From: an uncultured Planctomycetales bacterium
Lineage (GTDB): Bacteria; Planctomycetota; Phycisphaerae; UBA1845; PWPN01
DNA: 64,000 nucleotides
Direction of reading: 5' to 3'
Assembly: GCA_964569765.1 (NCBI GenBank)
Contig: CAZMVY010000001.1
Location: forward strand, 4-64,003
The notes under the pieces were generated by a model. The model had not been told where the DNA came from, searched no databases, and worked only from the letters and a program-made list of their open reading frames with translations. Numbering within the stretch: position 1 is the first letter of the stretch; the number at the start of each line of letters is the position of its first letter. The position numbers and the translations under genes were made by a program. Below are positions 1,494 to 19,995 of this stretch, piece after piece.

Positions 1494-1596
1494 GCCGGGT
1501 TCGCGCAACGTAAGGTGGGCGCCGCGCCTGCCGCCCAGGTGGCGCCACAGTGGTCAGGTTGTCTGTACAGGTAGTTCACGCGGGAGAGTCACTGCC

Positions 1597-3090
1597 ATGT
1601 GTGAATCGTGTGGGGCACCCCTTCTGGATCGCCGTGAGTTCCTGGTCACCGCCGGCACGCTCGGGACGGCGGCCGCGCTCGGCGCGCGAGCGATGGCCGG
1701 ACAGCCGGAGACAATGCCCGCAACTCCGTTGCCGGAGCGTGAAAAGAAGCCCCCGAGGGTCCTCGTCGCCTTCCTGTATCCCCCGGCCGACGTCGTGAAC
1801 GAAGGCCGGATGGAGGATTCGTGGCGGAAGTACAACTGGTTCACGTGGCCGGGCAACCAGTTCGAGCCGGAGCAGCAGGAGCGAAAGTTCACGGCGAGAA
1901 TCCGGGAGATCGCGGAGAGGCTCGGCGTCGTCGTCGAGTTTCAGCCCCGGGCCATCTACCAGGAGGCGAAGGTCAGAGAGTTCGTCGCGACGGCCAGGGC
2001 TGCGAAGCCCGACGCCGTGCTGATCGTCAACTTCTGGAACACGTTCTCCAGATGGTCGCACACGATGGCGACAGAGTCCGGGGCGCCGACGGCGATCGTC
2101 TACCACTCGCTCGGCTCGAACCACCAACTGCCGCCGGATTACCTGCGAAACGCGGAAGGGCTCTACTACATCCACTCCGTCGAGAACTGGGAGGAGATCG
2201 CACGCGGCCTGTGCGCCGTGCGGGCGAAGAAGATGCTGGCGCAAAGCCGGCTGCTGCGCGTGTCGGGACGGGTGAGGTCACCGATGCGAGAGATGGAAAA
2301 GCGGCTCGGAACCGAGATCGTTGAGGTGCCGGCCGAGGAGTTCAACGCGACGTTCGACGGCATCGCCGACGACGAGGCGCTCGTCCGCGAGGCCATGGAT
2401 TTCAAGAAACGCGCGGCGCGGGTCATGGACGTGGAGGACAGGTACTTTGTGGACGGGATGCGGGCGCATCGCGCCGTGGCGGAAATGCGGCGGCGGTACG
2501 GCGCCGACGCAATCACGATCGAGTGCCTCCAGCTCAAGCACCGCAAGCCGTGTCTGAGCTTCGCCACGAACAACGGCGCGCTGATCCCGTCCGGCTGCGA
2601 GAACGATCTGAACGCCTCCCTCACACTCATGCTGGGGCGCTGGCTGCTGGATCGCGGCGGCTTTCAGCACAATCCGGAGTTCGACACGAGCGAGAACCGG
2701 TACTTCGGCGCGCACTGCACGTGCGCCTGGAAGCTGCACGGTCCCGACAGCCCGTCGCAGGACTATTTTGTGCGGCCGTTCTTCCACCAGTTGCCCAGGA
2801 CGGCGGCCCTCGATGTGCAGTGGACGCCCGGCGAGAAGGTCATCCTCGCGAAGTATCGATCGGAGGAAGGCATACTTTCGTGCTGGACCGGCACGGTGAT
2901 CGAATCGCCGACCTCGCCGCCGACGGGCGGCTGCGCGACACGGGTGCTGATGAACATCGACGGGGTGGACGACGTGTGCAAGGTGTACGCCGGACCGCAC
3001 CCGGTCCTCTTCTGCGGCGAGCGCGGCGACGCGCGGCGACTCAAGGCGTTCGCGCGGATGTATCGGCTGACGCTCCAGGGCAACGTGTAA
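1597..3090 (+). CDS. AraA/FucI-fold sugar isomerase-like protein with twin-arginine (Tat) signal
   Basis: ORF 1435..3090 trimmed to ATG 1597. Tat motif DRREFLVTAGTLGTAAALGARAMA. Blocks collinear with L-arabinose isomerase as I recall it: SGCENDLNASL vs GEGDWKTA, NPEFD..GAHCTC vs MEDY..GSHMLE, GPHPVLF vs GGAHHTVF. Product assignment is recall-based. Confidence 0.65.
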   Translation: MCESCGAPLLDRREFLVTAGTLGTAAALGARAMAGQPETMPATPLPEREKKPPRVLVAFLYPPADVVNEGRMEDSWRKYNWFTWPGNQFEPEQQERKFTARIREIAERLGVVVEFQPRAIYQEAKVREFVATARAAKPDAVLIVNFWNTFSRWSHTMATESGAPTAIVYHSLGSNHQLPPDYLRNAEGLYYIHSVENWEEIARGLCAVRAKKMLAQSRLLRVSGRVRSPMREMEKRLGTEIVEVPAEEFNATFDGIADDEALVREAMDFKKRAARVMDVEDRYFVDGMRAHRAVAEMRRRYGADAITIECLQLKHRKPCLSFATNNGALIPSGCENDLNASLTLMLGRWLLDRGGFQHNPEFDTSENRYFGAHCTCAWKLHGPDSPSQDYFVRPFFHQLPRTAALDVQWTPGEKVILAKYRSEEGILSCWTGTVIESPTSPPTGGCATRVLMNIDGVDDVCKVYAGPHPVLFCGERGDARRLKAFARMYRLTLQGNV

Positions 3091-3239: not shown

Positions 3240-4301
3240 TTGAAGATGGAGGATGACTCTGTGGCCACACTCACGAAATACCGCTTCTCATTCGGTCCCT
3301 GGAACATCCATGAAGGCGCGGACCCGTTCGGCCCGACGGTCCGCCAACCGATCAGCTTTTCGAAGAAGCTCAAGGTCTACAAGAAGCTCGGCTTTGACGG
3401 CGTGCAGTTTCACGACGATGACGCCGTGCCCGACATCGACACGAAGTCGCCCAGGCAGGTATGCAACGAGGCTCGCCGGGTCCGTCGGATGCTCGACAAC
3501 GAGGGCCTCGAAGCCGAGTTCGTCGCTCCGCGCCTGTGGGAAAGCCCGATGACAATCGACGGCGGCTACACCAGCTACGACCCGAAGTGCCGCAAATATG
3601 CGAGCACGCGTTCGCTCCAGACGAGCGACATCGCCAACGAGCTCGGCACGCACAAGATCGGCCTCTGGCTCGCCCGCGAAGGGACGTACATTCGCGAATC
3701 CAAGAACGCCCGGGAGGCCTATCAGCGACTGCTTGATGCCATCAACATGATGCTCGATCACGACCCGCAGGTGCTCATCCTCATCGAACCGAAGCCCAAC
3801 GAGCCTATGGACCATGCCTACGTGCCCACGATCGGCCATGCGATCGCCATGGCGTACGAGACGAAGGATCCGGGCCGTGTCGGCGGGCTTATCGAGACCG
3901 CCCACGCCCTGCTGGCCGGCCTCGACCCGTCCGACGAGATGGCCTTCGCCCTGCAGCACAAGAAGCTCTGGAGCGTTCACCTGAACGATCAGAACGGTCT
4001 GAAGTTTGATCAGGACAAGAGCTTCGGCGCCGCGAATCTCCGTGCGGCGTTCAATCAGGTCCGCGTGCTTGAGGAGGGCGGCTTCGGCCGCAACGGAGAG
4101 TTCGTCGGCCTCGACGTAAAGGTCATGCGCACGCAGAAGCAGGCGAACAACACGGCCCACCTGGCCAACAGCAAGCGGTTCTTCGAGCTGCTCCTGCACA
4201 AGGTGCGAACGTTCGACCGCCGTGCCGAGGCGAAGCTCATCGCTGCCCGCGACTACGAGGGCCTCGAACGCCTCGTGATCGAGCACCTGCTCGGGGCATA
4301 A
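3240..4301 (+). CDS. Xylose isomerase family protein (class-I XylA-like TIM barrel), divergent
   Basis: Motifs shared with actinobacterial XylA: FSFGPW, FHDDDAVP, IEPKPNEP, PTIGHAIA, ETAH, HKKL..LN.Q.G.KFDQD, IEHLLGA. Start is TTG 3240 or ATG 3246. Confidence 0.85.
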   Translation: MKMEDDSVATLTKYRFSFGPWNIHEGADPFGPTVRQPISFSKKLKVYKKLGFDGVQFHDDDAVPDIDTKSPRQVCNEARRVRRMLDNEGLEAEFVAPRLWESPMTIDGGYTSYDPKCRKYASTRSLQTSDIANELGTHKIGLWLAREGTYIRESKNAREAYQRLLDAINMMLDHDPQVLILIEPKPNEPMDHAYVPTIGHAIAMAYETKDPGRVGGLIETAHALLAGLDPSDEMAFALQHKKLWSVHLNDQNGLKFDQDKSFGAANLRAAFNQVRVLEEGGFGRNGEFVGLDVKVMRTQKQANNTAHLANSKRFFELLLHKVRTFDRRAEAKLIAARDYEGLERLVIEHLLGA

Positions 4302-4343: not shown

Positions 4344-5090
4344 TCAGAGGCCCAAGAGGCGCCGGGCGTTGCCGGCGGAGACCGCTTCTCGTACGGTATC
4401 GTTCACCTTCGCCGAGGTCAGCTTGGCGACATTGCACGCAGGGTAGTGCAGCGGCATGCCCGTGCCGAACAGCACGCGGTGGGCGCCGACCGCCTCGACG
4501 GTCCGCCGCAGCGCTTCGAGGGCCTGCATGCACGTCAGCTCGATCGCGACGTTCGGACACCTTTGCATCACGATCACGGCAGCCCGGAATTCCGTGAGAT
4601 AGTTCGGCCCGCTGAGGATGAATTGTGCCGCCGGGTGTCGCTCGGCGAGCGCGCCGATTCCTTCGATCGGGTACGTGGCGAAGCGGAAGTTCATCATCGG
4701 CCGTGTGCAGACGATCGCCGGAATGTGAAGCTCTGCGGCCGCCTCGCACACCTCGTCAGCGAACGGATCGTACAACCGGTAGGCGTGGAGCAGCGGATAC
4801 AGGCGCACACCGCGAAACCCCTGCTCCGCCAGCGCCCGAAGCTCCGCGGCCCCGCCGCCGTTCATTGGACTGAGCACCGCAAGGGGCGTCAGCCGATCCC
4901 CGTGCGCCCGGGCCGCCGCCAGCGTCTCCGCGTTCGCCTCCCGCCGCTCGCCGTACATCCCGCGGAGCGACGTAATCGCCGCGCGATCGATCCCGTGCCG
5001 ATCCATGAGGCGCAGCACATCCTCGATGCCCGAATGCCGCAACGGCCAGAACTGCCACGGTCCGAAGAATGCGTTGATGTCGAACCGCAT
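4344..5090 (-). CDS. Amidohydrolase_2 family (TIM-barrel metal-dependent hydrolase)
   Basis: 248-aa ORF starting 2 nt after the upstream gene's stop. Family-typical length and C-terminal FGTGMPL / ..GNARRLLGL. Paralog-like to 5093..5824. Confidence 0.75.
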   Translation of the reverse strand: MRFDINAFFGPWQFWPLRHSGIEDVLRLMDRHGIDRAAITSLRGMYGERREANAETLAAARAHGDRLTPLAVLSPMNGGGAAELRALAEQGFRGVRLYPLLHAYRLYDPFADEVCEAAAELHIPAIVCTRPMMNFRFATYPIEGIGALAERHPAAQFILSGPNYLTEFRAAVIVMQRCPNVAIELTCMQALEALRRTVEAVGAHRVLFGTGMPLHYPACNVAKLTSAKVNDTVREAVSAGNARRLLGL

Positions 5091-5092
5091 CG

Positions 5093-5824
5093 CTATAGCC
5101 CCAGCAGACGCTCCAGATTCCCGCCCAGAATCAGCCGCTTCGCCTCTGCCGGTATCGCGGCGGCCTCCACCTTCGCCCGCTGCACCCAGGGATCAAGCAA
5201 CGGCATGTCCGAACCGAACAGAATCCTCTCGGGGCCCAGCCGCTCGACCGCATGCTCCAGCATCCCGTCATCCATCTGCGACGTGGCCGTATCGAGATAC
5301 AGGTTCGCGTGCCGCTCCGCCACCTCGACCGCCAGATGCCAGTTGCCGAACGCGTACGGTTGTCCCGCCATATGTGCCATCACCAGCTTCACATCCGGCA
5401 CGTGTCGCAGGAGATGGTCGCACTCGCCGGGTGTCAGGTGTCCGAGGACCACCAGCCCCAGCTCTGCCGCCGTTTCCAGCACGGGGTACGTCCACGCCTC
5501 CGTGACGGGCGCCTCCGGATGCGAGTAGAGCTTGACGCCCCGCACCCCGTACCTCTCGACGCAGCGCCGCACCTCGGCCACGGCCGCCGCTCCATACCGC
5601 GGCGAGGGAATCGTTGCATAACCGAACAGCCGGTCGCCATGCCGCGCCAGTTCCGTGCCGAGCCGGTCGTTACCTTCTCGCATGTCATGCCACAGCGCCG
5701 TTACGTGCGTCACGAAAAGACGATCGACGCCGACCTCGTCCGCCAGGGCAATCAGCATGTCCGCCGTCGCATCGATCTGGAGAAACTGCGACGTTCCGAT
5801 ATGTACGTGTCCGTCAATGATCAT
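5093..5824 (-). CDS. Amidohydrolase_2 family (TIM-barrel metal-dependent hydrolase)
   Basis: N-terminal metal motif MIIDGHVHIG. C-terminal FGSDMPL...LGGNLERLLGL. Confidence 0.8.
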   Translation of the reverse strand: MIIDGHVHIGTSQFLQIDATADMLIALADEVGVDRLFVTHVTALWHDMREGNDRLGTELARHGDRLFGYATIPSPRYGAAAVAEVRRCVERYGVRGVKLYSHPEAPVTEAWTYPVLETAAELGLVVLGHLTPGECDHLLRHVPDVKLVMAHMAGQPYAFGNWHLAVEVAERHANLYLDTATSQMDDGMLEHAVERLGPERILFGSDMPLLDPWVQRAKVEAAAIPAEAKRLILGGNLERLLGL

Positions 5825-5873
5825 CGACGCTCACGAGTCGACGGCCGGGCGAGGCCGGTACGGCATAGCCGTT

Positions 5874-8798
5874 TCAATGTTCCGCCCGCCGCTCCGTGCT
5901 TTCGCCGGCCGGCTTCGCCGCCTCTGGCGGCACGATTTCCACTTCGATCGGACTCCGCCACGAAAGTGCCAGCCGCTTCAGTTCTCCATACCAGTCGTCG
6001 ATCGTCGGGCATCGCGGATACTGTCGCCCGCGAAGCCAGTCCGCCTGGATGACATAGGCCAGTTCACGGCCCACCTGCGCCCGCAGCCGGACCCTGCGCT
6101 CACCGGGCAACTCGACCACGCCGGCGAATACCTCCGGCTCGAAGATCAGCCCCATCCCGATCGTACCGATGACCGTCGTCTGCCGCCCCCAGGTCGCAAA
6201 GACCCCCGCGTTAGCGTCCACAATCATTCGCTCGTCGCGCAAGCGCGTGAAGCCCGGCGCCAGGCACACCGGATCCGACGTCGCCGGCCCGCTCACGAGC
6301 ACGCGCACCGGTGACTCCTGCCGTCCTGCGACGGCCATGCAGCGGACGCGCACCTTGTACGGCCCGACCTTGTCCGCCGTGAACTCGATCGCCGCACGCA
6401 CGGGGCCTTCGGCAAGGGCCCTCTTCGTGAACTCGATCGTCCCCTTGCCCTCCGGGGTCTGTACGGGGTATTCCCGCTCACCGACGTACAGCGTCAGGCC
6501 GCCCAGCCCAGGGCCCGCCCCCACATTCAGCGCGTCGATGCCCCACTCCGTCTCGTCGTGGTAGCTCTGGCGGCCGATCGTCGGCAGAATCAGCCGATCG
6601 ACCTTCTTTCCGAAGAAGTCAAACTGTCCCCAGTACACCCGGTAGCAGATCCGCTCGGATTCCCACCCGATGTTCGGCGGTATCCAGTCCTGCGCGGTCG
6701 CCGTCCGGTTCACAAAGGGCGGCCGGGCTTCGTCCTTCGTCGCACGGCTCAACCAGTACGTCTCGCTTCCTCCGGGATCCAGCGAAGCCGTGAAGCACAG
6801 TTCCTCGCGATCGTCCGGCCCGGCCCTGTCCACCTGGTGCGGAATCCGCCGCCAGGCCAGCCATCGATTCCCGGCCAGCACGGCCACATCGCCCGGTTGG
6901 AAATCCGTCGCCGCCTTGCGGAGGGCCTCCGTGCTCACCGCCACCAGCTCGCCCTCGCGCAGAATATCTGCCGTGTTCACAAGGCGGACGCCGAGTCTCT
7001 CAATCGCTCCCTCGTCCGGCCCGGCCGGCCCGGCCGGAGTTTGCGGCAGGCCTGTGTGAATGGCCTCCCGGATCCATCGCGCCGTTGCCGTGAAGTCGCC
7101 CGCCGCGTAGAGTTTCCGCAGCTTCGAAACCTGTTCCGTGTCCGGCAACAGTTTCTCCAACCGGATGTAGTACCGATCCCGCACGAGATCCTGATAGTAT
7201 CGGGCGGTATTGCGGCTCGCCCGCATCCGCTCGCCGACGCGATGCTCCGGCAGGAAACCCGCGAGTTTTTCCGCATAAAACTGTTCGACGGCGTCCAGCG
7301 TGAAGACCGGCTCCTTCGCGTGCAGCACCGCCTTCATCAGGTCGATGAGCATCTGGTTGTCCGCCAGAGCCGTCGCCAGAGCCGCACGGTATGTGTCGGC
7401 GATGCAACCCTCCTCCAACGGTACATCGTCCACCTTCGGCGGCTCGCGATACAGGATCAGTTCCGGCTCGCCGGTGGCATCCATGTCGATCTCCCGGACC
7501 TCGAGAACTCCATCCGCATCGATGTCGCGGAACGTGTATCGCATATCGATCTTGTGATCGAGGTCGTAGTCCACGTCGATCCAGGCCTCATCGGCCCCGC
7601 GGAGGTGAATCCGATGATCCGCCGGATCGTAATAGAGCCGCGTGGGCCCGTCCGGAACCAGGTCCAGTTCGTTTCGCTTGTTGGTCGGGCCGCACGTCGG
7701 CCCGCCAATCCCCGGAAAGTTCTTTGAAGGGTGCGCAATGACGCCTTCCCACCGCAGATGCGGGTCGCGCTCATAATCCCCGTCGGTGTTCAGATCGTTC
7801 TCGTCCCATGTCAGCAGCGTCCGCGCCCACTGCGTCCGATTGACGAATTGCCGGGCTCGGTCGTGCGCGAGATACGGCCCGGTCGGAATCCCGCGGATCC
7901 GTGTTGCCGTGCACCATAACGGATCAGGCCGAAGGCGCGACTTGCCGGGCGTGGGCGACTTCTCGCCGAGCGTGTGACCCGGCGCCAGCGACGTCAGCGA
8001 GAAATCGTAATGGTGCGGCATCGTCCGGCAGCTTCCATTGTCCGCGTCGAAGCTGTACCGGATCGACTCGATCTGCTCCGCCTTGCCGCTGATCCGGAGG
8101 ACGACCTCCGACTCCCCGTCGCCGTCCGTGTCGTAGAAGAGAAACGGATTCTCGAAGATCGGCTCCCATCGCACGGCGCCGGGCGACAGAGCAAACAGGC
8201 AGAACATCTCGTCGCCGCCGAAGTGCGTTCGCCACTGGCAATCCGCCTGCCGGTATGTGTAGTTCACGTCGTACCAGACCCGGTTGCGGTCGGCGAGATC
8301 CCAGTCCCACCAGACGCGCAGCGCATCGGCGCCCATGTAACGGTCGTTCGGCGAAAAGAAGAAGATCCCCATCTCGTCCACGTCTCCGTCACCGTCGTCA
8401 TCTTGATAGGAGATTACGGAATCCACCGTGCCGTCCGCGTGCCAGTCGGCAAGGTAGAGATCCGCGTCCTGGTCCGGTTCGCCTCCCTTCACGAGATCTC
8501 CGTCTTCGTCAATCACCCGGACGAGAATCGGCCGGCACTGTTCCTGATGCCGCGAGTCCGTGTCGATGAACCAGACCTCGGCCGGACGCTCCGCGGTGCG
8601 GTCCACATAGTATCGCGTTCCCGGCGCGAGCGACTTCACCTCCGCCACCGTCGCCGGGTCGAGTTTCGCGTAGTCGCCGAACACCCGCTCGAAAAGCGCC
8701 TGCTTCGACGGCGGGTCGGTCGCTGCACCGGCCGCCGTACCGGCCGTGACGAAGATCAGCCAGATCGAGCTTGCGTATGATGTTCCGATCCGCATCAT
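5874..8798 (-). CDS. Large secreted protein P1: Asp-rich Ca-loop repeat region plus extra C-terminal ~400-aa domain (possibly DUF4861-like)
   Basis: 974-aa ORF with signal peptide MMRIGTSYASSIWLIFVTAGTAAGA. D-x-D-x-D-G loops: DDDGDGDVDE, YDTDGDGESE, DIDADGVLE. Paralogous to 13192..15078. C-terminal GWESERICYRVYWGQFDFFGKK resembles DUF4861 from memory only. Confidence 0.8.
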   Translation of the reverse strand: MMRIGTSYASSIWLIFVTAGTAAGAATDPPSKQALFERVFGDYAKLDPATVAEVKSLAPGTRYYVDRTAERPAEVWFIDTDSRHQEQCRPILVRVIDEDGDLVKGGEPDQDADLYLADWHADGTVDSVISYQDDDGDGDVDEMGIFFFSPNDRYMGADALRVWWDWDLADRNRVWYDVNYTYRQADCQWRTHFGGDEMFCLFALSPGAVRWEPIFENPFLFYDTDGDGESEVVLRISGKAEQIESIRYSFDADNGSCRTMPHHYDFSLTSLAPGHTLGEKSPTPGKSRLRPDPLWCTATRIRGIPTGPYLAHDRARQFVNRTQWARTLLTWDENDLNTDGDYERDPHLRWEGVIAHPSKNFPGIGGPTCGPTNKRNELDLVPDGPTRLYYDPADHRIHLRGADEAWIDVDYDLDHKIDMRYTFRDIDADGVLEVREIDMDATGEPELILYREPPKVDDVPLEEGCIADTYRAALATALADNQMLIDLMKAVLHAKEPVFTLDAVEQFYAEKLAGFLPEHRVGERMRASRNTARYYQDLVRDRYYIRLEKLLPDTEQVSKLRKLYAAGDFTATARWIREAIHTGLPQTPAGPAGPDEGAIERLGVRLVNTADILREGELVAVSTEALRKAATDFQPGDVAVLAGNRWLAWRRIPHQVDRAGPDDREELCFTASLDPGGSETYWLSRATKDEARPPFVNRTATAQDWIPPNIGWESERICYRVYWGQFDFFGKKVDRLILPTIGRQSYHDETEWGIDALNVGAGPGLGGLTLYVGEREYPVQTPEGKGTIEFTKRALAEGPVRAAIEFTADKVGPYKVRVRCMAVAGRQESPVRVLVSGPATSDPVCLAPGFTRLRDERMIVDANAGVFATWGRQTTVIGTIGMGLIFEPEVFAGVVELPGERRVRLRAQVGRELAYVIQADWLRGRQYPRCPTIDDWYGELKRLALSWRSPIEVEIVPPEAAKPAGESTERRAEH

Positions 8799-8970
8799 AT
8801 CTGCCCCACAGTATCAATCCCGCACAGTCAGCCTGCGTAGCTTATCGGCGTCCGTGCAGATACGGCCCGCCTCTGGAATTCTCGCGGACCGTGAACGCTT
8901 CAGGAAACAACAGTGCGGATTGCGGGTGTCTATGGCATCCGTGTCCTTCGTCGCACTGTCGCCTCGGCGC

Positions 8971-10257
8971 CTACAGTACCTTTGCTGCATCCTCCACGGC
9001 GACCAGCGTCCGCTCCACGTCGTCATCCGTGTGCGCCGTGGAAACGAACCATATCCCCTCCGGTACCACGCGGACGCCGCGATCCTGCAAAGCCACGGCG
9101 AAACGCCTGTACTTCTCCGCGTCGCGCGGCAGGTACGTACGGTAGTCACGGGCGTTCGGATCGCCGCCGAAGGACACATGGAACACGGCGGGCACCCCGC
9201 GAACCACCGCCTTCGGCATGGCCCGCCGAATCCCCTCCATCAGCCTCGTGCCGCGCATCCGCAGTTGCCGGTACACTGCCCCGTCGTCTGCGCTGAGTTC
9301 CTCGAGCGCCGCCAGCGCCGCCGCCATGCACGGCGCGCCCGCGTTGTACGTCCCCGCATGGGACACGCTCAGGTCGCCGAAGTATTTCATCAACTCGCGC
9401 TTCCCCGCGATCGCGCTCACCGGGAACCCCGCCGCCAATCCCTTCGCAAACGTGGCCAGGTCCGGCGTCACGCCGAAGTGCGCCTGCGCCCCCCCCGGCG
9501 CCAGCCGGAACCCCGTGATCACCTCGTCGAAGATCAGCACGGCCCCGTGCTTCGTGCACAGCTCGCGCATGCCCTGCAAATATCCCCGCTGCGGCATGAG
9601 CGCGCCCATGTTGCACATCATCGGCTCCGTGATGACCGCGGCGATCTCGCCGGCGTGCGCATCCATCGTTTTTCGCAGCAGGTCAAGGTCGTTCCACGGC
9701 AGCACGATCAGGTTGGCCGCGTCGCTGGCTGGCTGGCCCTTCGTGGCAGGAACCGGCACCGGCGCCTCGCGCGGCCCGGCCGCGTCGATTGGCGGCGCGT
9801 AGCTCCACATGTGGCTGTCGAACCAGCCGTGATAGTGGCCCTCGAATCGCACGATCTTCGTACGCCCCGTCACCGCCCGCGCCAGGCGGACCGCCCCGTG
9901 GATCGCCTCGGAGCCGCTGTTCGAGAAGCGAACCATCTCCGCGCACGGCACCATCGCGGCCATCTTCTCCGCGACGCGGACCTCCAGCTCGCTCTGTCCC
10001 GCGTACATCAGGCCCGTATCGATCTGCCTGTGCACGGCCGCGAGCACACGCTTCGGCGAGTGCCCCAGCAGCAGCGGCCCGCGCGCGAGCACATAGTCGA
10101 TGAACTCGTTCCCATCCGCATCCCAAACGTGCGAGCCCTCGCCTCGTTCGTAAAACATCGGGTGCGGTTGCCAGCTCGCGCGGACGTTGCTGGATATCCC
10201 GCCGGGGATCACCCTGCACGCCCGCTCGTAGAGCGCCTTTGAGCGATCAAATCTCAT
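8971..10257 (-). CDS. Class-III PLP aminotransferase (glutamate-1-semialdehyde aminomutase-like)
   Basis: ORF 8971..10362 trimmed to ATG 10257 (MRFDRSKALYERA..). Motifs PGGISSNVR, RFSNSGSEA, FDEVITGFR and PLP-lysine context ATFAKGLAAGFP. Confidence 0.9.
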   Translation of the reverse strand: MRFDRSKALYERACRVIPGGISSNVRASWQPHPMFYERGEGSHVWDADGNEFIDYVLARGPLLLGHSPKRVLAAVHRQIDTGLMYAGQSELEVRVAEKMAAMVPCAEMVRFSNSGSEAIHGAVRLARAVTGRTKIVRFEGHYHGWFDSHMWSYAPPIDAAGPREAPVPVPATKGQPASDAANLIVLPWNDLDLLRKTMDAHAGEIAAVITEPMMCNMGALMPQRGYLQGMRELCTKHGAVLIFDEVITGFRLAPGGAQAHFGVTPDLATFAKGLAAGFPVSAIAGKRELMKYFGDLSVSHAGTYNAGAPCMAAALAALEELSADDGAVYRQLRMRGTRLMEGIRRAMPKAVVRGVPAVFHVSFGGDPNARDYRTYLPRDAEKYRRFAVALQDRGVRVVPEGIWFVSTAHTDDDVERTLVAVEDAAKVL

Positions 10258-10358
10258 GCCCGTGCCGTTCCCTGACGCGAACCCGGTCGGTATGCCGGCC
10301 GGCCGTGAACACCTCGCCCAATCCGCGCGCAGGCGTCCGGAACCCGGACGCCGGTCCC

Positions 10359-11390
10359 TCACGCCGGCCGCACCTCCGCCCGCTTCTTCGACGACTCATA
10401 CGCCGCCAGCGCCACCGCCACCGACTGCCGCCCGTCGATGCCTGTCGCGCACGGCGGGCGCTTCTCGCGGATGCTTGCGAGGAAGTCGCTCATGTGGTCG
10501 CGGTACGACTGCATCCGCACCGGGTCGAGCTTGCCTTTGCCGGCCCAGTCGATCGGGGCCTGTGTCTCGATGACCTCCCACGGCCCACCGTCCGTCGAAA
10601 CCCGGAGTTCGCCGTACGCGTCGAGGTCGATCAACCCACGCTCGCCGACAATCCACGCGGCGAACGCCGACCGCGGGAACCCGGGTCTGGGAATCTGGAA
10701 CGATTCCCACAGGCTCGCCGTCGCGCCGTCGGCCAGTTCCATCAGCAGCATGCTCGTGCCCTCCACCTTCACCTCAGGCTCGATACTGCCGCAGCGGGCG
10801 TACACCGTCTTGACCTCGCTGCCGGTGAACCAGCGGATGCGGTCGATGCCGTGCACGCCGTGACCGAAGAGCGTGCCGAGGTTTTCCGGCGTATTCTGCC
10901 AGGGTGGCAGCGTACCCATCCCGCCGGGATTGAGCGCCAGCTCCTTGATCAGCAGGATGCGCCCGATCCGCCCCTCGTCGATGAGCCTTTTCGCGGCGAT
11001 GTTGCATTTGCGGAACCGCTGCGTAAACGCGATGGCGCAGTTCACCCGGGCCTTTTCGCAGGCCGCGTTGATCGCGTCGCACTCGGCGACCGTCGAGGCC
11101 ATCGGCTTCTCGATCAGCAGGTGCTTGCCCGCCTTTGCCGCCGCCAGCGCGTATTCGGCGTGCGTAGCGTGCGGCGTGGCCACGATGATCGCGTCGATGT
11201 CGCTGCGCCCGATGAGCCGCTCGGCGCTCGCCTCGCAGGCCGCGCCGTACTGTTTCGCCAGCTCCGCCGAGCGCGAGCCGCCCGTGATCGCCACGAGCCT
11301 GGCCTGCTCCGCGCAGTACTTCGTGAGCGTTTCCGAATACGTCAGTCCCATGAACCCGGAACCGATGATGCCGATGCCGATAGCACTCAT
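10359..11390 (-). CDS. Gfo/Idh/MocA family oxidoreductase
   Basis: Rossmann N-terminus MSAIGIGIIGSGFMG and EKPMA motif (LLIEKPMAST). The start ATG overlaps the upstream stop as ATGA (11387-11390). Confidence 0.9.
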   Translation of the reverse strand: MSAIGIGIIGSGFMGLTYSETLTKYCAEQARLVAITGGSRSAELAKQYGAACEASAERLIGRSDIDAIIVATPHATHAEYALAAAKAGKHLLIEKPMASTVAECDAINAACEKARVNCAIAFTQRFRKCNIAAKRLIDEGRIGRILLIKELALNPGGMGTLPPWQNTPENLGTLFGHGVHGIDRIRWFTGSEVKTVYARCGSIEPEVKVEGTSMLLMELADGATASLWESFQIPRPGFPRSAFAAWIVGERGLIDLDAYGELRVSTDGGPWEVIETQAPIDWAGKGKLDPVRMQSYRDHMSDFLASIREKRPPCATGIDGRQSVAVALAAYESSKKRAEVRPA

Positions 11391-13195
11391 GCGCGCCGCT
11401 CCGCAATCTGCTTACGATCCGCCGGCGACACGGGCGGCCGGCTGCGTCGAAACATCAGAATCCCCGCCGTGGCGAGGACCAGGCCGATCGCCGCGTCCAG
11501 GCCGATCGCGATCGGTTCCCGCGCCCACGGAAGGATGCCGAGAATCAGTACACCGATCAGAAACGTGCAGATCCCGGTCACGCGGAACGGCGAAATCGCC
11601 GCCCGGCCGGGTTCCGTTCCGGCGACCCGATCCTGCTCCAGTTGGCCGATCGGGATGCGGATGCGGGCCAGGAACTTCTCCGCCCGATCGAGGTCCTCTG
11701 CCGCCTGCGGGAACAGAGTATTGCCGGCCAGGACCCCGAGAAGGGTCACGGCGGCGGAAAGCCAGAAAATGGCGTTCTCCCGCTCCAGTACTACGGCGCC
11801 GATGCTGAGCCGCCCCTTCTCGAGCAGAAACCCCACGAGGTGCCGCGATTCGCCGTCCGGGATTCCCGCCATGCCCACGAGAAGCCCGAGACCTGCGCAA
11901 AGACCGACCCCAAACCCGAGCAGCGCGCCCCGGCTGCTCAGGCGACTGGAGACCAGGCCCCACAGCATCGGAATGGCGACCGGCGGGACGGCCGCACTGA
12001 ACAGAGTCACCATATTCTTGAACATGGCGGCGTCCTTGCCGCTGCTCAGCAGGAAGGCTACGCCGATACTCAAGGCGCCCACCAGCAGGGTGGTGAGCCG
12101 CCCGACAAAGACAAGCTCCCGATGGCCGGCCTTCGGGCGCAGCAGGCGGTTGTAGATGTCGTTGGTCAGCACGCTCGCGCAGACGTTATAGTCGCTGCTC
12201 AACATAGACATGGTTGCGGAGAACATGGCGGCGAGCATCAACCCCATCATTCCGACGGGCAGGATCGCCAGGCACATCTTCGGATACACCCACGTACTGT
12301 CTGCCAGGGGCGGCAGGAAGTGCCGCGCGGCCATCGCGGGAAGGAACATGACCGGCGTGGTCACGAGGTTGAGCACGACGACCAGCCAGCCGACCTTGAG
12401 CGCGTCGCGTTCCTTCGGCACGCAATAGAACTTCTGCACAAGCCCCCAATTGATGCTCCAGGACAGGGTATACAGAAAGATCAGCGAACCCAGGTAGAGC
12501 CAGGTGAACTCGCCGCCCGTCAGGCGGAAGAACCCCTCGGGCGAATTCTGGACGAACGCGTGGAGGCCCCCGGCATGGCTGATCGACAGGGGCAGGATGA
12601 TGATCACGGCGGCGAGCAGGACGACGAACTGCACGAAGTCGGTGACGGCCGCGGCCCAGAGCCCGCCCATAAACGTGTACGCGAGCATGATGACGGAGGA
12701 CCAGAACATGCCTTGCTTCGGGTTTTCCAGCCCCAGGCCCAGCGACAGGAGCGTCCCGATGGCGACGATCTTGAGGGCGTCGTCGATGATCTTGACCGGC
12801 ACCCCCTGCCAGGCGAAGAGCTGGCGGACCGCGGAGTTGTAGCGCGCCTCGAGGTACTCCACGGGACTGACCACGCGGGCGCGGCGCCAGCGGGTTGCGA
12901 AGAACAGGACGCTGAACAGGGCGGCCGGCACCGTGACCCAGTACATGCTCAACGCGACGCCCCCGTGCCGGTATGCAATAGCCGAGTAGTTCACGAACGC
13001 AAAGGCGCTGAAGCTGGCCATGTAATACGACACGCCGCTGAGCCACCAGGGGATGCGGTTGCCACCGGTGAAGTAGTCCTTCATGCCCTTCATGTAGCGG
13101 TAGAAGTACGCGCCGATGCCGAGCATCAGGGCGAAGTAGCTCACGAGAATGAAGTAGTCCGGCCCCCGGAGGTGCGTCTGCGCCAGGATCGTCAT
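11387..13195 (-). CDS. Sodium:solute symporter (SSS) family transporter
   Basis: ORF 11387..14059 trimmed to ATG 13195 (MTILAQTHLRGPDYFILVSYFALMLGIGAYFY). Multi-TM hydrophobic sequence typical of SSS. ATGA overlap with the upstream gene at 13192-13195. Confidence 0.9.
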   Translation of the reverse strand: MTILAQTHLRGPDYFILVSYFALMLGIGAYFYRYMKGMKDYFTGGNRIPWWLSGVSYYMASFSAFAFVNYSAIAYRHGGVALSMYWVTVPAALFSVLFFATRWRRARVVSPVEYLEARYNSAVRQLFAWQGVPVKIIDDALKIVAIGTLLSLGLGLENPKQGMFWSSVIMLAYTFMGGLWAAAVTDFVQFVVLLAAVIIILPLSISHAGGLHAFVQNSPEGFFRLTGGEFTWLYLGSLIFLYTLSWSINWGLVQKFYCVPKERDALKVGWLVVVLNLVTTPVMFLPAMAARHFLPPLADSTWVYPKMCLAILPVGMMGLMLAAMFSATMSMLSSDYNVCASVLTNDIYNRLLRPKAGHRELVFVGRLTTLLVGALSIGVAFLLSSGKDAAMFKNMVTLFSAAVPPVAIPMLWGLVSSRLSSRGALLGFGVGLCAGLGLLVGMAGIPDGESRHLVGFLLEKGRLSIGAVVLERENAIFWLSAAVTLLGVLAGNTLFPQAAEDLDRAEKFLARIRIPIGQLEQDRVAGTEPGRAAISPFRVTGICTFLIGVLILGILPWAREPIAIGLDAAIGLVLATAGILMFRRSRPPVSPADRKQIAERRA

Positions 13196-15078
13196 TGTGC
13201 CGATTCCTTGCCCTCGATGAGTTCCGCCAGCGACGAGCAGACGGCGTCCAACCGCCCTTCCCCGTACGCCTGGTCCATTTCCGCCAGTCTCTTCGCCAGT
13301 TCCCAGCCCTGCGTCGATGCGGCCAGATGCTCGCGGTGGCGGCGCAAATCGCCCGCGCCGGCGCGGTCGAGTATCTCCTTCGACCGCTTCAGCAGGGTTT
13401 CGCGGAGCAAAACGTAATGCAGTTCGCGGATTACGTCCAGCACGTACCGTCGCTCCGTCGCAGACGTTGCCGCCGCGAGCGCCTGGCTCAGGCCCGTCGG
13501 CGGCGTGAACGGCTCGACCCGGTTCATCACGGCGAGGAGCCGCTCGTTTGCGGCGATTGCCTCCGGAAGGATTCTCTCCGTGTAGAGGCCCTGTACCCGC
13601 CTCCAGTCGTTCGGCAATACCGTCGCCCGCGGATCGCGGACAGTGCAGACACGTACGGGCGACGCTCCGCTGCCGAGATACGTCTCCCAGTGGTCGAAAA
13701 AGCCGTCGCCGTTCGTGTCGAACATACGCATCTCGCCGATCGGCTCCCTGTCGCCCAGACAACCGATCTCGATCCAGCCCTCCGTCGCACCCTTCAGATG
13801 GATCCGTTGATCGACCGCGCTGTAGTACAGCTCGCGCCGCGTCGAGGGCGCCGGGCAGAACTCGCGGCGCATGTTCCACCGCTGCACCGGCCCGCCCGTG
13901 TTGTGCATGATCCGCCGGCCCCAGATCCAGAACACGCCCTCCCACCGCCAGTCCTGCTCGGCCTTCGGCGGGTAGCCGATCGCGATGGTGCCGTCCTCGA
14001 ACTCCCTCCAGGAGAAGCCCGTCTGCTCGGCCGGATATGTCTCGGCGATCCGCCGGCAATCGGCATGCCGGGCGCAGATCGTCGTCTTCGGCGAGCGCCG
14101 CAGCGGGTTCGTGTGCCGCATGCCGCCAAAATCGTACGGCAGCCTGCCGGTCATATTAAAGCCCATATCGTAGTGCAGCGGCGTCTCCGCCGAGTTCCTG
14201 TCGTCCATGTCGATGCTGTAGCGGACATTGACCACGCCGATGGCCCGCAACTCAGGATAGAACGGCCCTTCGTATCGGGCGGCGTCGTTCGCAAAGTCTG
14301 CGTCCTTCTTCGGATCGAAACTGATCGGCGCTGCACTAAACCGCACGACGGCCCCGCTCTGCCCGTTGCCCTTCGTGTCGTAGAACGCGAACGGGCACTC
14401 GCTGATCGGCCACCAGCACCGCCGCTCGGGGTCGTAGCGGTTCATGTAAAGCATGTTGTTGCCGTAAGGGTCGCTCGTGAAGCAGTTCGCCGAATACTCG
14501 TAGTTCAACAGGCTCCACATCACCCCGTCGCCGTCGAGGTCCTCCCAGAACCACGCCCGCCGAAGCTCGCCCTTCACGAAGTAGCGGATGTCCATCTCCT
14601 CGGCCCGGCCATCGCCGTTATTGTCGATGTAGTCCACCATGCGATCGACAAGGCCGTCGCCGTCGTAGTCCACGACGTAGCAGTCGGAGTCGTGATCGCA
14701 CTCCGGCCCGCCTACGCGCAGCACCGCTCCGGGTGGGATCCCCGCCGCTGCCATCATGTCGCCATCGTCGTCGATGTCCCACTCTATCGGTGACTGATTC
14801 GTCCGCTTGCCGGTCAGCCGCTCCCGCCTGACGTGCATCCAGCCTCCCCCGGGCTCCGACGACCGGACGGTGAATTCGCGCCCGTCCACCAGTTGCGCTG
14901 CCTTCGGCCACCAGGGCTTGGTCTTCAGATCCAGCACGCCGTGCGAATCAAGCTGCGTCTCTTTTTCCCACCAGGGCGTCGCCGCCTGACACCCTGCGGC
15001 TGCCAGCCCGAGCAGGCACACGAGCAGCCGTCCGCGCCCCCCACGAACCCGGCCGTCTTCGGTCGTCGCCACCACCAT
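13192..15078 (-). CDS. Secreted lipoprotein P2, paralog of P1 (Asp-rich Ca-loop repeat protein)
   Basis: Lipobox LLGLAAAGC. Loops YDGDGLVD, DNNGDGRAEE, DLDGDGV, DTNGDGFFD. Collinear with P1: RWEGV, LYY..D.RIHL.GA.E.WI, PF.FYDT.G.G. Start is ambiguous (GTG 15090, ATG 15078, GTG 15075/15072). GAGGAGG at 15082-15088. Confidence 0.8.
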   Translation of the reverse strand: MVVATTEDGRVRGGRGRLLVCLLGLAAAGCQAATPWWEKETQLDSHGVLDLKTKPWWPKAAQLVDGREFTVRSSEPGGGWMHVRRERLTGKRTNQSPIEWDIDDDGDMMAAAGIPPGAVLRVGGPECDHDSDCYVVDYDGDGLVDRMVDYIDNNGDGRAEEMDIRYFVKGELRRAWFWEDLDGDGVMWSLLNYEYSANCFTSDPYGNNMLYMNRYDPERRCWWPISECPFAFYDTKGNGQSGAVVRFSAAPISFDPKKDADFANDAARYEGPFYPELRAIGVVNVRYSIDMDDRNSAETPLHYDMGFNMTGRLPYDFGGMRHTNPLRRSPKTTICARHADCRRIAETYPAEQTGFSWREFEDGTIAIGYPPKAEQDWRWEGVFWIWGRRIMHNTGGPVQRWNMRREFCPAPSTRRELYYSAVDQRIHLKGATEGWIEIGCLGDREPIGEMRMFDTNGDGFFDHWETYLGSGASPVRVCTVRDPRATVLPNDWRRVQGLYTERILPEAIAANERLLAVMNRVEPFTPPTGLSQALAAATSATERRYVLDVIRELHYVLLRETLLKRSKEILDRAGAGDLRRHREHLAASTQGWELAKRLAEMDQAYGEGRLDAVCSSLAELIEGKESAQ

Positions 15079-15119
15079 CGCCCTCCTCACCCCTGCCGTC
15101 GATTCCCGAACGGCTCCCG

Positions 15120-15148
15120 AGTATCACCCAAGCTCGCCGCGGTATCAA
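15120..15148 (-). promoter_or_regulatory. Sigma70-like promoter for the P2-SSS-oxidoreductase operon
   Basis: Minus strand reads TTGATA (15148-15143), a 17-nt spacer, then GATACT (15125-15120). About 40 nt upstream of the P2 start. Confidence 0.4.
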
Positions 15149-15918: not shown

Positions 15919-17016
15919 TCACACCGAATCGGGCTCGCTCGCGTACCGCCGTGCCGTCTCGCGCGTGATCCGGCCCGCCTGAACCAGCCGGCGAAGCGAT
16001 TCATCGAGTGTCATCATGCCGTCGCGCTTGCCCGTCTGCAGCGCCGAGGCAATCGCCTCGATCTTGCCCGTCCGGATCGCGCTGGCTACGGCGTAGTTGT
16101 TGAACAGAACCTCCAGCGCGAGCGCCCGCCGCTCGCCTTCCCGCGCCGGTGCCAGCAGGTGCTGGCTGAGCACGCACCGCAGGCTCAGCGAGAGCTGCGA
16201 CCGCACCGCCTCCTGCGCCTCCGAGCCGAACAGGTCCGCGACGCGGCTGATCGCGCCCTTCGTATCCAGCGTATGCACCGTCGAGAGGATCAGGTGACCG
16301 GTCTCTGCCGCGCTCAACGCGATCTGGGCCGTGTCGCGGTCGCGGATCTCGCCGACCAGGATCACGTCCGGATCCTGCCGCAGGCCGTACTTCAGCCCGT
16401 CGTAGAAGCTCGCCACGTCCACCCCGACCTCCCGCTGCGTGATCACCGATCCGCCCCCGTGGGGGAACACGTACTCGATCGGCTCCTCGATCGTGATGAT
16501 CCGCCGCGAGTGCCGCTCCGCCAGGAGCTTCACGAGGATCGCCATCGACGTCGTCTTGCCCGAGCCCGTCACGCCCGTGAAGAGCACCAGCCCGTTGTGA
16601 AGCTGAAGGATCCGCTCCGCCGTATCCTCGGGAAAGCCAGCCCACTCCAGCGTCGGGATCTCGCTCGGGATGTGCCGGAAGCACACGCCGATCCGCTCCT
16701 GGTGCTGGAACAGGTTGACGCGGAATCGCTCCGAGCGACCGCGATGCTCCAGCGCGAACGAGAAATCGCAGTTCTTCTGCTCCTCGAACCGCGACCACGC
16801 CGTCCCCGGCGTCACCGACCGCGCCATCGCCCCGATCGTCTCGCCGTCCAGCGGCGGCTGGTCGAGCGCCCGCAGCCGCCCATGTACGCGGAGGATCGGC
16901 GGATAACCCACCACCAGGTGCAGGTCCGACGCCTCCGTCGCGACGGCGGTCTGAAGCAGTCTCGCAATGTTCCCGGCAGCGGCGATCGGCGACGCGTCGG
17001 GCTTCGGTTTCGTCAT
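15919..17016 (-). CDS. pilT: Type IV pilus twitching-motility ATPase PilT
   Basis: ORF trimmed to ATG 17016 (MTKPKPD..). ASDLHLVVGYPPILRVHG, Walker A GVTGSGKTTS, and GEIRDRDTAQIALSAAETGHLILSTVHT. Confidence 0.92.
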   Translation of the reverse strand: MTKPKPDASPIAAAGNIARLLQTAVATEASDLHLVVGYPPILRVHGRLRALDQPPLDGETIGAMARSVTPGTAWSRFEEQKNCDFSFALEHRGRSERFRVNLFQHQERIGVCFRHIPSEIPTLEWAGFPEDTAERILQLHNGLVLFTGVTGSGKTTSMAILVKLLAERHSRRIITIEEPIEYVFPHGGGSVITQREVGVDVASFYDGLKYGLRQDPDVILVGEIRDRDTAQIALSAAETGHLILSTVHTLDTKGAISRVADLFGSEAQEAVRSQLSLSLRCVLSQHLLAPAREGERRALALEVLFNNYAVASAIRTGKIEAIASALQTGKRDGMMTLDESLRRLVQAGRITRETARRYASEPDSV

Positions 17017-17170
17017 GGCGGACTCCCTGTGCGGACAATCCGTGCCATGATTGTACACCGGGCCGGCGCGAAAGATGCAAGCGGCGTCCACTTGAACGTG
17101 TCTCCGGGACCGGCGATACTCCCGGAACGCGGCAAAAACGCGAATCGTTCAGAAGCTTCGGAGACAGACG

Positions 17171-18694: not shown

Positions 18695-18764
18695 ATCCAT
18701 CGAGCGCGTCGCCTCCGCGGAACGGACCCTGTCGGTACCCGCCCGCCCATTGCCGGCGTCTTTT

Positions 18765-19715: not shown

Positions 19716-19865
19716 GCCGCTATCATAACAGCGCAAGCACGCAGGGCGCGTAGGGGCTGCTGTGCGGACGGAATCCGCAAGCCGAAGGCTGCTGTGCTCT
19801 GGGTTACGTCCGCGGAGCGGACCCTACCGACTCAGTCGTGAACCGGTCCATGCCGTTATCATAAC
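19692..19865. repeat. 38-bp direct repeat (1 mismatch), copies at 19692-19729 and 19828-19865
   Basis: cgactcagtcgtgaaccggtccatgccg[c/t]tatcataac occurs twice, 136 bp apart. Copy 1 contains the radical-SAM start codon and its first 8 codons. Confidence 0.9.
19804..19851 (-). promoter_or_regulatory. Candidate 15-codon upstream ORF created by the duplicated gene start
   Basis: Minus strand: ATG GAC CGG TTC ACG ACT GAG TCG GTA GGG TCC GCT CCG CGG ACG TAA, giving MDRFTTESVGSAPRT*. The first 8 codons are identical to the radical-SAM gene. Whether it is translated is unknown. Confidence 0.3.
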
Positions 19866-19975
19866 CGCACCGGACGCGGACGACGGAGACGGGCAGGGAG
19901 AGCTGTTACGCACCGTTCCTCTCGGGCGCCGTTCAGGCGAACGGCACGCAATAGCGTGCCCTACATACTGCGGAC

Positions 19976-19995
19976 GCGGCCTCTGGAGAGGCCGC
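19976..19995 (-). terminator. Terminator-like hairpin after the TIM-barrel gene (no U-tract)
   Basis: GCGGCCTCT-GG-AGAGGCCGC, 11 nt beyond the stop at 20007. Two more perfect hairpins follow: 19944-19959 GCACGC-AATA-GCGTGC and 19928-19945 GCCGTTC-AGGC-GAACGGC. Confidence 0.35.

Follow-up and report, generated by a model that had tools for sequence, protein, structure and literature searches.

A conserved seven-gene cluster of an uncultured Planctomycetales bacterium with a possible role in the catabolism of glycan-derived amino sugars

The ong pathway of Pseudoalteromonas prydzensis acts on C1-oxidized chitin (GlcNAc1A); in it, an importer of the SSS family, an amidohydrolase-superfamily deacetylase and a pyridoxal 5′-phosphate (PLP)-dependent deaminase act together on an amino-sugar acid (PMC9537276). 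Bacteroides thetaiotaomicron needs the DUF4861 protein BT3233 to grow on chondroitin sulfate, hyaluronan and heparin (PMC8121099), and NagX, NagP and NagA make up a genetically defined route for free glucosamine (PMC9007349). Here we describe a cluster of seven genes in a 64,000-nucleotide stretch of DNA from an uncultured Planctomycetales bacterium (contig CAZMVY010000001.1, positions 4 to 64,003; hereafter the window). In the order of transcription, the genes encode an exported lipoprotein (P2), an SSS symporter, a Gfo/Idh/MocA oxidoreductase (GFO), a class-III aminotransferase (AT), a secreted protein (P1) and two Amidohydro_2 proteins (G2 and G1). The cluster is not a chance arrangement; it is a genuine functional unit conserved across several bacterial phyla. 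We tentatively propose that it serves the non-phosphorylative catabolism of a glycan-derived hexosamine or N-acylhexosamine by deacylation, PLP-dependent deamination and NAD(P)-linked redox chemistry, a reading to which we give somewhat less than an even chance. It builds on observed gene content, export signals, paralogy, cluster conservation and glycan context.

The window is high in GC (~65%), and its genes, with DUF1570, DUF1571 and numerous sulfatases among them, are those expected of Planctomycetota. The cluster consists of seven consecutive minus-strand open reading frames (ORFs) spanning 4344–15090 (4344–5090, 5093–5824, 5874–8798, 8971–10362, 10359–11390, 11387–13195 and 13192–15090), which show a strong bias in third-position GC content, as in real genes. 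The start of AT was taken as the homology-supported ATG at 10257, inside ORF 8971–10362, and that of P2 as the ATG at 15078, inside ORF 13192–15090, which is preceded by a GGAGG ribosome-binding sequence. The features are:

4344–5090, minus strand: G1, Amidohydro_2 protein (PF04909, 95 bits)
5093–5824, minus strand: G2, Amidohydro_2 protein (PF04909, 121 bits)
5874–8798, minus strand: P1 gene, secreted protein of 974 aa with a signal peptide, the signature of the locus family
5940–6977, minus strand: DUF4861 domain of P1, residues 608–953 (PF16153, 117 bits)
7059–8720, minus strand: N-terminal part of P1, residues 27–580, the domain common to P2
8971–10257, minus strand: AT, class-III aminotransferase resembling glutamate-1-semialdehyde aminomutase (GSAM), 428 aa (PF00202, 205 bits)
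10359–11390, minus strand: GFO, Gfo/Idh/MocA oxidoreductase, 343 aa (PF01408, PF22725, PF02894)
11387–13195, minus strand: SSS/SSF sodium:solute symporter, 602 aa (PF00474, 134 bits)
13192–15078, minus strand: P2, exported lipoprotein, ~628 aa (lipobox LAAAGC; without a Pfam or NCBIfam family)
15120–15148, minus strand: promoter-like site TTGATA-N17-GATACT, 42 nt upstream of the P2 start codon

A first-pass annotation, made from the sequence alone, had already listed seven co-oriented genes and named their families, and ORF, Pfam and NCBIfam checks bear out all of them; the ATGA overlaps, the 2-nt gap and the TTGATA-N17-GATACT site that it reported are likewise present at the positions given. 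The overlaps join the P2 stop to the symporter start (13192–13195) and the symporter stop to the GFO start (11387–11390), and the gap separates G2 from G1 (5091–5092). The remaining junctions are wider: 101 nt between GFO and AT, 172 nt between AT and P1, and 49 nt between P1 and G2. Because only three of the six junctions are tight, the term 'translationally coupled', which that annotation had applied to the whole operon, is appropriate for part of it. Its description of the cluster as bracketed by two secreted paralogues is right as regards paralogy and export, but P1 is the fifth gene and not an end gene.

Conservation was assessed from P1. In a set covering 185,579 species with one genome each, 485 relatives were confirmed, and the best 80 loci were taken, onto which the seven window proteins were mapped (L numbers below denote individual loci); of these, 43 contain a P1 homologue with enough flanking sequence, and the partner counts rest on these 43 well-flanked loci. 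Homologues of P1 are common in metagenomes and mostly 930–990 aa long, with 298 at E ≤ 1e-5 among the scored candidates. The identical order P2-SSS-GFO-AT-P1-G2-G1 is found in 9 loci, in all of which the P2 homologue is the first gene, and at least one partner gene is present in 29. A class-III AT occurs in 23 (27 of all 80 loci by neighbour clustering), a symporter homologue in 21, and adjacent G2 and G1 genes in about 19–21, as well as in L085–L087. Variants include loss of P2, insertions and rearrangements: P2 lies at the end in Omnitrophota-type loci, P1 stands beside an inverted AT-GFO-SSS block in Hydrogenedentota, and Bryobacteraceae have G1-G2, SSS, GFO, P2 and P1 in a different order. 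Pfam-annotated contigs of relatives give the same picture, including neighbouring genes with 4-nt overlaps. Gene order is thus conserved in relatives, and the opposite outcome, which the first-pass annotation had put forward as grounds for abandoning the idea of a functional unit, clearly does not apply. When the search was seeded from AT, the closest relatives were again found with a Gfo/Idh/MocA gene and an Amidohydro_2 pair; two AT-seeded loci are without P1, and their GFO belongs to a different subfamily (24–26% identity). This result defines the enzymatic core as AT, a GFO-type oxidoreductase, G2 and G1. P1/P2 and the symporter are the front end of the cluster.

P1 and P2 are paralogous over ~500 aa (27% identity, E = 1e-35 by BLASTP). 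They have in common an exported domain of ~550 aa, and DUF4861 is absent from P2. No Pfam or NCBIfam family was matched by P2, and the P2-type family is small, with 255 cluster representatives at E ≤ 1e-3 among 1.84 billion. P1 exceeds the gathering threshold of DUF4861 (PF16153; 117.3 versus 22.3 bits, profile positions 3–380 of 380), scores 46 bits against the 320-bit cut-off of the NCBIfam BT_3233 equivalog, and departs from the single-domain architecture of BT_3233 in having an extra N-terminal region of ~580 aa. For the N-terminal part of P1, neither a Pfam family nor a PDB entry related in sequence was found. The AlphaFold model of full-length P1 has a predicted local distance difference test (pLDDT) score of 82, and the N-terminal 554 residues modelled alone reach a pLDDT of 90.7 and a predicted template modelling score (pTM) of 0.89. 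In this model, the N-terminal part is predicted to fold into a domain rich in beta-structure and Asp, with a helical bundle after it, for which Foldseek found no credible match in the PDB (best E = 4e-3, top probability 0.14, leading TM-scores ≤0.14). The full model matched only the helical-bundle and beta-sandwich tail of GH38 mannosidases, together with PL26, at a TM-score of ~0.2; the likeness to the GH38 C-terminal region (E = 1e-8, TM-score ~0.2) involves the helical bundle plus the DUF4861 domain of P1. Residues invariant in P1 and P2 include many Asp, R276, W305, E307, R323-W-E-G326, N347, R349, E351, Y363 and H372. The invariant Asp suggest putative Ca2+ sites, and the set of Arg, Trp, Glu, His and Tyr suggests a carbohydrate site, of which such residues are typical. 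Genes of the P1/P2 family are often duplicated, in tandem or divergently (L047, L056, L057, L017, L064 and L081, near position 10000 of each), and fusions occur, among them the 1663-aa P0103 (DUF4838 + DUF4861 + GH67N) and proteins of at least 1300 aa in L038 and L084. This pattern of duplication and fusion is typical of carbohydrate-active families.

The closest solved relatives of AT by sequence are GSAMs (HemL; 312 bits to 5i92); others are D-phenylglycine aminotransferase, PctV-type enzymes and C-6′ aminoglycoside aminotransferases. AT stays below the cut-off of each HemL model (TIGR00713, 369.7 versus 527.3 bits; NF000818, 393.4 versus 398; NF009055, 317.7 versus 637) and of GntE (423 versus 525 bits). 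In HMMER alignments, it has a 2-residue gap opposite the 'EA' of four HemL structures with the PSxFEAGF motif (the window reads RVVPEGI--WFVSTAH), and the HemL Tyr is replaced by an Arg, in ...RVVP..., which we take to be the equivalent of the Arg that binds the alpha-carboxylate in class-III transaminases. The Glu of FEAGF disfavours alpha-keto-acid co-substrates in the Synechococcus GSAM. Of 27 operon-linked AT homologues, 25 carry the corresponding motif, [PS]xG[IL]WF[VIL]S[TA]AH. Taken together, the sub-threshold scores, the deleted FEAGF/Glu motif and the change from Tyr to Arg argue for a distinct GSAM-like transaminase subfamily; on these sequence features, AT is not HemL. Several operon-linked members (P0287, P0291, P0317, P0337 and others) are publicly annotated as 'glutamate-1-semialdehyde 2,1-aminomutase', and this label is probably a systematic misannotation, because the FEAGF motif is deleted and the genomic context is a different one. 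Genes resembling uroporphyrinogen decarboxylase (URO-D-like, uroporphyrinogen-decarboxylase/MtaA-type) or HEM4 occur near the AT cluster at L006:7416-8459, L087:13496-14266, L001:19901-21085 and L086:19390-20355, and the HEM4 gene of L087 overlaps the G1 stop. A tetrapyrrole link through these neighbours was rejected, as they are sporadic and represent three distinct loci; as one candidate idea, the URO-D-like proteins may take part in corrinoid-type O-demethylation of methylated uronates.

GFO has the N-terminal Rossmann domain, the C-terminal alpha/beta domain and the EKP motif (LLIEKPMA) of the Gfo/Idh/MocA family (PF01408, 83 bits; PF22725, 68 bits; PF02894, 56 bits). No signal peptide was detected, and the protein is predicted to be cytoplasmic. 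Its best NCBIfam match is IolG (152 bits against a cut-off of 355), no substrate-specific equivalog being reached. Its solved relatives comprise 4,5-dihydroxyphthalate dehydrogenase, aldose-aldose oxidoreductase, inositol dehydrogenases and 1,5-anhydrofructose reductase, and its sequence neighbours use sugars and cyclitols as substrates, acting at C1, at C2 or at ring hydroxyls. The symporter, which scores 157 bits against the 184-bit cut-off of TIGR00813 and reaches no equivalog, is the presumed importer of the released sugar.

G1 and G2 are paralogous and always occur as an adjacent pair (~20 loci). G2 carries the full set of metal ligands of the amidohydrolase superfamily (DxHxH, H129, H151 and D206), and D4, H6, H8, H129, H151 and D206 are invariant in 15 homologues. 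G1 retains only D4 of this set: it reads DINAF for DGHVH and FGTGMP for FGSDMP, lacking both the HxH and the strand-8 Asp, and most of 21 homologues have a D-x-N-x-[FCY] N-terminal motif. We considered G1 as a decaying pseudoenzyme and rejected this, as it has invariant polar residues of its own across phyla (R130, N163, Y164, E167, E184 and K223). G1 is better described as a putative non-canonical partner subunit or metal-independent enzyme, and the pairing suggests either a heteromer or a metal-independent second activity. In profile searches, G2 is nearest to 3cjp, 3nur and the group of ACMSD, gamma-resorcylate decarboxylase, LigW and LigJ, and the nearest solved relative of G1 is 3irs. The characterized PDB relatives found in these searches are decarboxylases, hydratases and a C–C hydrolase, along with weak TatD-type matches; lactonases are not among the relatives listed. 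The FuconLaconase model gave 16 bits against a cut-off of 400, over 35 residues only. The premise that the pair are Amidohydro_2 lactonases, from which the first-pass annotation had argued, is therefore unsupported by the relatives found, although with E-values as weak as these a lactonase role may still apply.

The related loci provide the glycan context. All neighbours in the 80 loci were clustered and representatives scanned, which gave the following accessory partners:

Heparinase II/III-like protein of ~1030 aa, 22 loci
CE15-like (glucuronoyl-esterase-type) esterases, 8 + 5 loci (13)
Sulfatases, 12 loci
FAH-family hydrolases, 10–11 loci
Beta-helix proteins, ~9 loci
DegT/DnrJ/EryC1 aminotransferases, 6–7 loci
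PIG-L de-N-acetylases, 4 loci
Aldose 1-epimerase, 4 loci
MR_MLE dehydratases, 3–4 loci
DUF4838/GH67N, 3 loci
Stand-alone DUF4861, 3 loci

GntR-FCD or IclR regulators also occur. Two themes run through these neighbourhoods, an acidic-glycan theme (lyase-like proteins, CE15 esterases, sulfatases and DUF4861) and an amino-group theme (two kinds of aminotransferase, de-N-acetylases, GH20 and NagX). As the uronate/sulfate and amino-group themes both recur, a glycosaminoglycan-like polymer, or another polymer of uronate plus hexosamine, would satisfy both.

Bacteroidota loci come from Proteiniphilum sp. X52, Petrimonas sulfuriphila DSM 16547 and a Proteiniphilum metagenome-assembled genome; in Proteiniphilum sp. 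X52 and Petrimonas, the P1 homologue directly follows a SusC/SusD pair. No such pair was found around the window cluster among the genes scanned, so that the arrangement of a Bacteroidota-type polysaccharide utilization locus (PUL) is not seen there. Several related loci encode a DegT aminotransferase with a twin-arginine translocation (Tat) signal (SRREFIK or SRRLFL in three Bacteroidota loci, SRRNFV in L064 of an uncultured bacterium):

L076:12529-13920
L077:11588-12973
L081:8590-9945
L064:14151-15605

The gene adjoins that of the P1 homologue in L064, L076 and L081 and is one gene away in L077, with a Peptidase_M55 gene between. Several of these loci also contain GH20, beta-helix or disaggregatase-related proteins, a GFO with a Sec signal, NagP, a NagA-like amidohydrolase and NagX. 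It is unusual for a PUL to encode a sugar aminotransferase that is exported by the Tat route and apparently periplasmic. The idea that DegT simply stands in for the class-III AT by non-orthologous replacement is weakened, as the two occur together in L030, L065 and L067. 'Ceramidase-like' deacylases replacing G2/G1 in Bacteroidota were set aside because their Pfam scores are below threshold (16 and 31 versus 32 bits), which leaves a hint only.

From these data we infer what the substrate is, which reaction each protein catalyses and in what sequence the steps follow. Outside the cytoplasm, lipoprotein P2 and secreted P1 would bind the glycan or oligosaccharides derived from it, or would cleave them, and the symporter would take up the released amino sugar or amino-sugar acid. 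Inside, the G2/G1 pair would remove an N-acyl group or open a lactone, AT would turn the amine-bearing carbon into a carbonyl while passing the nitrogen to a keto-acid, and GFO would perform a linked NAD(P) redox step, the net output of these enzymes being a sugar or keto-acid free of nitrogen. The data agree equally well with two orders. In order (a), C1 oxidation to an aldonolactone would be followed by ring opening, deacetylation and transamination of the 2-amino-aldonate to a 2-keto-aldonate; this order leaves none of the four enzymes without a role and parallels the ong GlcNAc1A route. In order (b), deacetylation would be followed by transamination of the hexosamine to a 2-keto-aldose and by reduction of the latter to a neutral hexose by GFO; a hexosamine is an alpha-amino aldehyde, like glutamate-1-semialdehyde, and 1,5-anhydrofructose reductase is among the relatives of GFO. 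A more specific version, which we consider distinctly unlikely, is that hexosamine nitrogen is removed independently of NagB by AT acting on an unphosphorylated amino sugar or aldonate together with GFO redox chemistry, fed by the new P1/P2 family, and that in Bacteroidota and L064 the Tat-DegT enzyme performs the amine-to-ketone step in the periplasm, where it may act on the glycan itself and so render a resistant glucosaminide linkage cleavable.

The first-pass annotation had described an uptake/oxidation/transamination module for a glycan-derived sugar, suggesting fucoidan and arabinan among the substrates to try. Glycan utilization, uptake, redox chemistry and an aminotransferase all stand, the tie to glycans being strengthened by the heparinase-like, CE15-like and sulfatase neighbours and by the Bacteroidota relatives in SusC/D PULs. 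The direction from oxidation to transamination is less well founded; the surrounding genes speak rather for taking an amino group off an amino sugar. Fucoidan or arabinan as substrate found no support, the context being that of uronate- and hexosamine-containing glycans.

Several observations weigh against the amino-sugar reading. No enzyme of the cluster reaches any equivalog threshold, and none of the accessory partner genes of the related loci lies within the window. The hexosamine-specific partners GH20, NagX and NagP are limited to two or three Bacteroidota loci, DegT often stands alongside the class-III AT rather than in its place (L030, L065 and L067), and in Hydrogenedentota the amidohydrolase pair is missing though SSS, GFO and AT are kept. 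G1 and G2 are nearest to ACMSD, LigW, gamma-resorcylate decarboxylase, LigJ, LigY and the uncharacterized 3cjp and 3irs rather than to deacetylases or lactonases, and FAH, MR_MLE, CE15 and the GntR-FCD or IclR regulators fit a sugar-acid or uronate route at least equally. Such an oxidative route is the alternative that we take most seriously, although we regard it as unlikely. After uptake, a uronate, an unsaturated uronate or an aldose would be oxidized at C1 by GFO, the Amidohydro_2 pair would be a lactonase, a lactone isomerase (Gli-like) or a decarboxylase, and AT would convert a downstream keto-acid or aldehyde such as 2,5-dioxopentanoate towards glutamate or proline, in place of an aldehyde dehydrogenase. 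The heparinase II/III-like proteins (22 loci), CE15-like uronoyl esterases (13 loci), DUF4838/GH67N, FAH (10–11 loci), MR_MLE (3–4 loci) and the regulators of both families speak for it, as do the need for DUF4861 on all three uronate-containing glycosaminoglycans tested, the position of G1/G2 nearest a decarboxylase/hydratase clade, and the retention in AT of the N-terminal ...VRA... Arg, which in GSAM binds the distal carboxylate. Against this, no precedent for a transaminase in uronate catabolism turned up in the literature, nor do we know of one; FAH, MR_MLE, lyase-like proteins and CE15 are all absent from the window, and the DegT, PIG-L, GH20 and NagX partners would be left unexplained.

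The remaining readings are weak. That an IolG-like GFO and AT interconvert inositol, inosose and inosamine (in a rhizopine- or scyllo-inosamine-like route) after uptake by the symporter is very unlikely: myo-inositol 2-dehydrogenase is the best NCBIfam match of GFO and inositol dehydrogenases are among its top solved relatives, but the 152 bits fall far short of the 355-bit cut-off, no iol or moc genes (IolE/B/C/D-like) were found in the window or the related loci, and the persistent partners are glycan-active proteins. The inosose aminotransferases that we know of are, moreover, of the DegT family and not class III. Even less probable is a biosynthetic module that would make an amino sugar by oxidation and then amination, as in the NtdC/NtdA-like synthesis of kanosamine, for a secreted or cell-surface glycan handled by P1/P2. 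A GFO dehydrogenase with an aminotransferase is indeed the chemistry of kanosamine and UDP-amino-sugar synthesis, and UDP-GlcNAc 3-dehydrogenase is a weak NCBIfam match of GFO (105 bits, cut-off 450); the cluster, however, has an importer, no nucleotidyltransferase, glycosyltransferase, phosphatase or exporter was found in it or the scanned flanks, and the neighbours in related loci (lyase-like proteins, esterases, sulfatases, GH20 and SusC/D) are degradative. Equally improbable is an incidental adjacency, in which AT would be a housekeeping HemL and the other genes unrelated neighbours. It could draw on the annotation of AT as glutamate-1-semialdehyde aminomutase in some sources, on the near-threshold score against one HemL subfamily model (393 versus 398 bits) and on the URO-D-like or HEM4 genes beside the cluster in L006 and L087. 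Against it, the association of AT with GFO, the amidohydrolase pair and P1 persists in different phyla and despite rearrangements, the deletion of the FEAGF/Glu motif recurs in 25 of the 27 homologues linked to the operon, the score against the HemL equivalog is 370 versus 527 bits, and the URO-D/HEM4 adjacency is sporadic (3 distinct loci).

The seven genes form a putative single transcription unit, as judged from their common strand, the three tight junctions, the lack of terminator-like sites in the intergenic regions of the cluster and the conserved order in relatives. No Rfam family matched inside the cluster, and regulatory RNA in the 101-nt and 172-nt gaps was rejected on this basis (no match at E ≤ 0.1). 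TTGATA-N17-GATACT is a putative promoter of the cluster. Promoter scanning overall did not rise above chance (3 sites found versus 1.7 expected). The closest relative, L005, whose P1 is 87% identical, has TTGATG-N17-GATACT at the equivalent position, with hexamers and spacing kept and the spacer diverged, which is the pattern that a functional promoter would show. The heptamer TTGATAC has just two copies in the window, at 8811–8817 and 15142–15148 on the minus strand, upstream of P1 and P2; the latter copy is the −35-like hexamer of the promoter-like site. TTGATAC as a shared P1/P2 operator was rejected: 2 copies compare with 1.8 expected, and the P1 copy is missing in L005.

Convergent with the cluster, on the plus strand, are a sulfatase gene (3–1493), an ORF of 551 aa that matches no Pfam family and, weakly, a Tat signal (1435–3090) and a XylA-like TIM-barrel gene (AP_endonuc_2; 3240–4301), which end 42 nt from the G1 stop. 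The link between this trio and the cluster, as drawn in the first-pass annotation, holds in close relatives only: all three genes are syntenic in L005, and the XylA-like gene is found in L015, where it is 84% identical as compared with 46% for P1 and thus far more conserved than the operon genes. Upstream of the operon (15919–20906) lie a type II secretion/type IV pilus-type ATPase gene (T2SSE), a second sulfatase gene with SGSH_C, a gene for a small radical-SAM/4Fe-4S protein, possibly a sulfatase-maturating enzyme, and a further gene for a xylose-isomerase-like TIM barrel. The SGSH_C matches of the flanking sulfatases were not used as evidence of sulfamidases, this C-terminal domain being common in S1 sulfatases.

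What is new here is the conserved gene combination, the unannotated exported domain of P1 and P2, the GSAM-like transaminase subfamily and the pairing of a canonical with a non-canonical Amidohydro_2 protein. In sediments, soils and anaerobic digesters, Planctomycetota, Phycisphaerae, Hydrogenedentota and Omnitrophota are major and little-understood degraders of complex and sulfated glycans. DUF4861, with its genetic glycosaminoglycan phenotype, would gain a defined set of enzyme partners, the P1/P2 domain would become a candidate for a new carbohydrate-active family, and a recurrent misannotation of AT as HemL would be corrected. If the deamination reading is true, the cluster would be a new amino-sugar catabolic route that ties glycan carbon to nitrogen recycling. 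P1 homologues exist in the cultured Petrimonas sulfuriphila DSM 16547 and Proteiniphilum sp. X52.

The literature on this gene combination gave no described pathway, in agreement with the first-pass annotation, and comparison with known systems places the cluster as follows. HemL has the fold and the PLP-lysine region in common with AT, which differs in its scores below the equivalog cut-offs, the deleted FEAGF/Glu, the Arg for Tyr and the catabolic operon context. Oxidative routes such as that of the L-fucose type (dehydrogenase, Amidohydro_2 lactonase, MR_MLE dehydratase and FAH hydrolase) and the Gli uronate route resemble the cluster in combining a dehydrogenase with Amidohydro_2 proteins. 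FAH and MR_MLE occur in P1-related loci, but the window is without a dehydratase or FAH; those routes have no aminotransferase, and G1/G2 fall outside the lactonase clade by the available comparisons. The NagX/NagP/NagA route handles free (N-unsubstituted) hexosamine released in the periplasm, and its genes flank P1 homologues in the Proteiniphilum and Petrimonas PULs; it re-acetylates and then uses NagA/NagB, whereas the window is without these genes and has an aminotransferase and an oxidoreductase. BT3233 is matched by the C-terminal PF16153 domain of P1, and its phenotype agrees with the lyase and sulfatase context of P1 loci. Its NCBIfam model comprises just 354 positions, so that family is the DUF4861 domain alone, in contrast to P1 with its additional ~580-aa exported region. 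In the ong pathway the logic is alike (periplasmic release, SSS import, cytoplasmic deacetylation and PLP-dependent deamination to a keto-acid, likewise non-phosphorylative at the deamination stage), and the window has an importer of the same SSS family (PF00474, 134 bits). OngB is of the D-aminoacylase type and OngC of the D-amino-acid-deaminase type, as opposed to the Amidohydro_2 pair and the GSAM-like class-III aminotransferase here; OngB- or OngC-type proteins, KdgK and RidA were not found among the seven cluster genes and ten scanned flanking genes. The window is also without the GH20 of ong and, within the cluster, has no lytic polysaccharide monooxygenase; it has instead an NAD(P) oxidoreductase and the exported proteins P1 and P2. 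The cluster thus works like the back-end of a PUL or like the ong pathway, and is a member of no described pathway.

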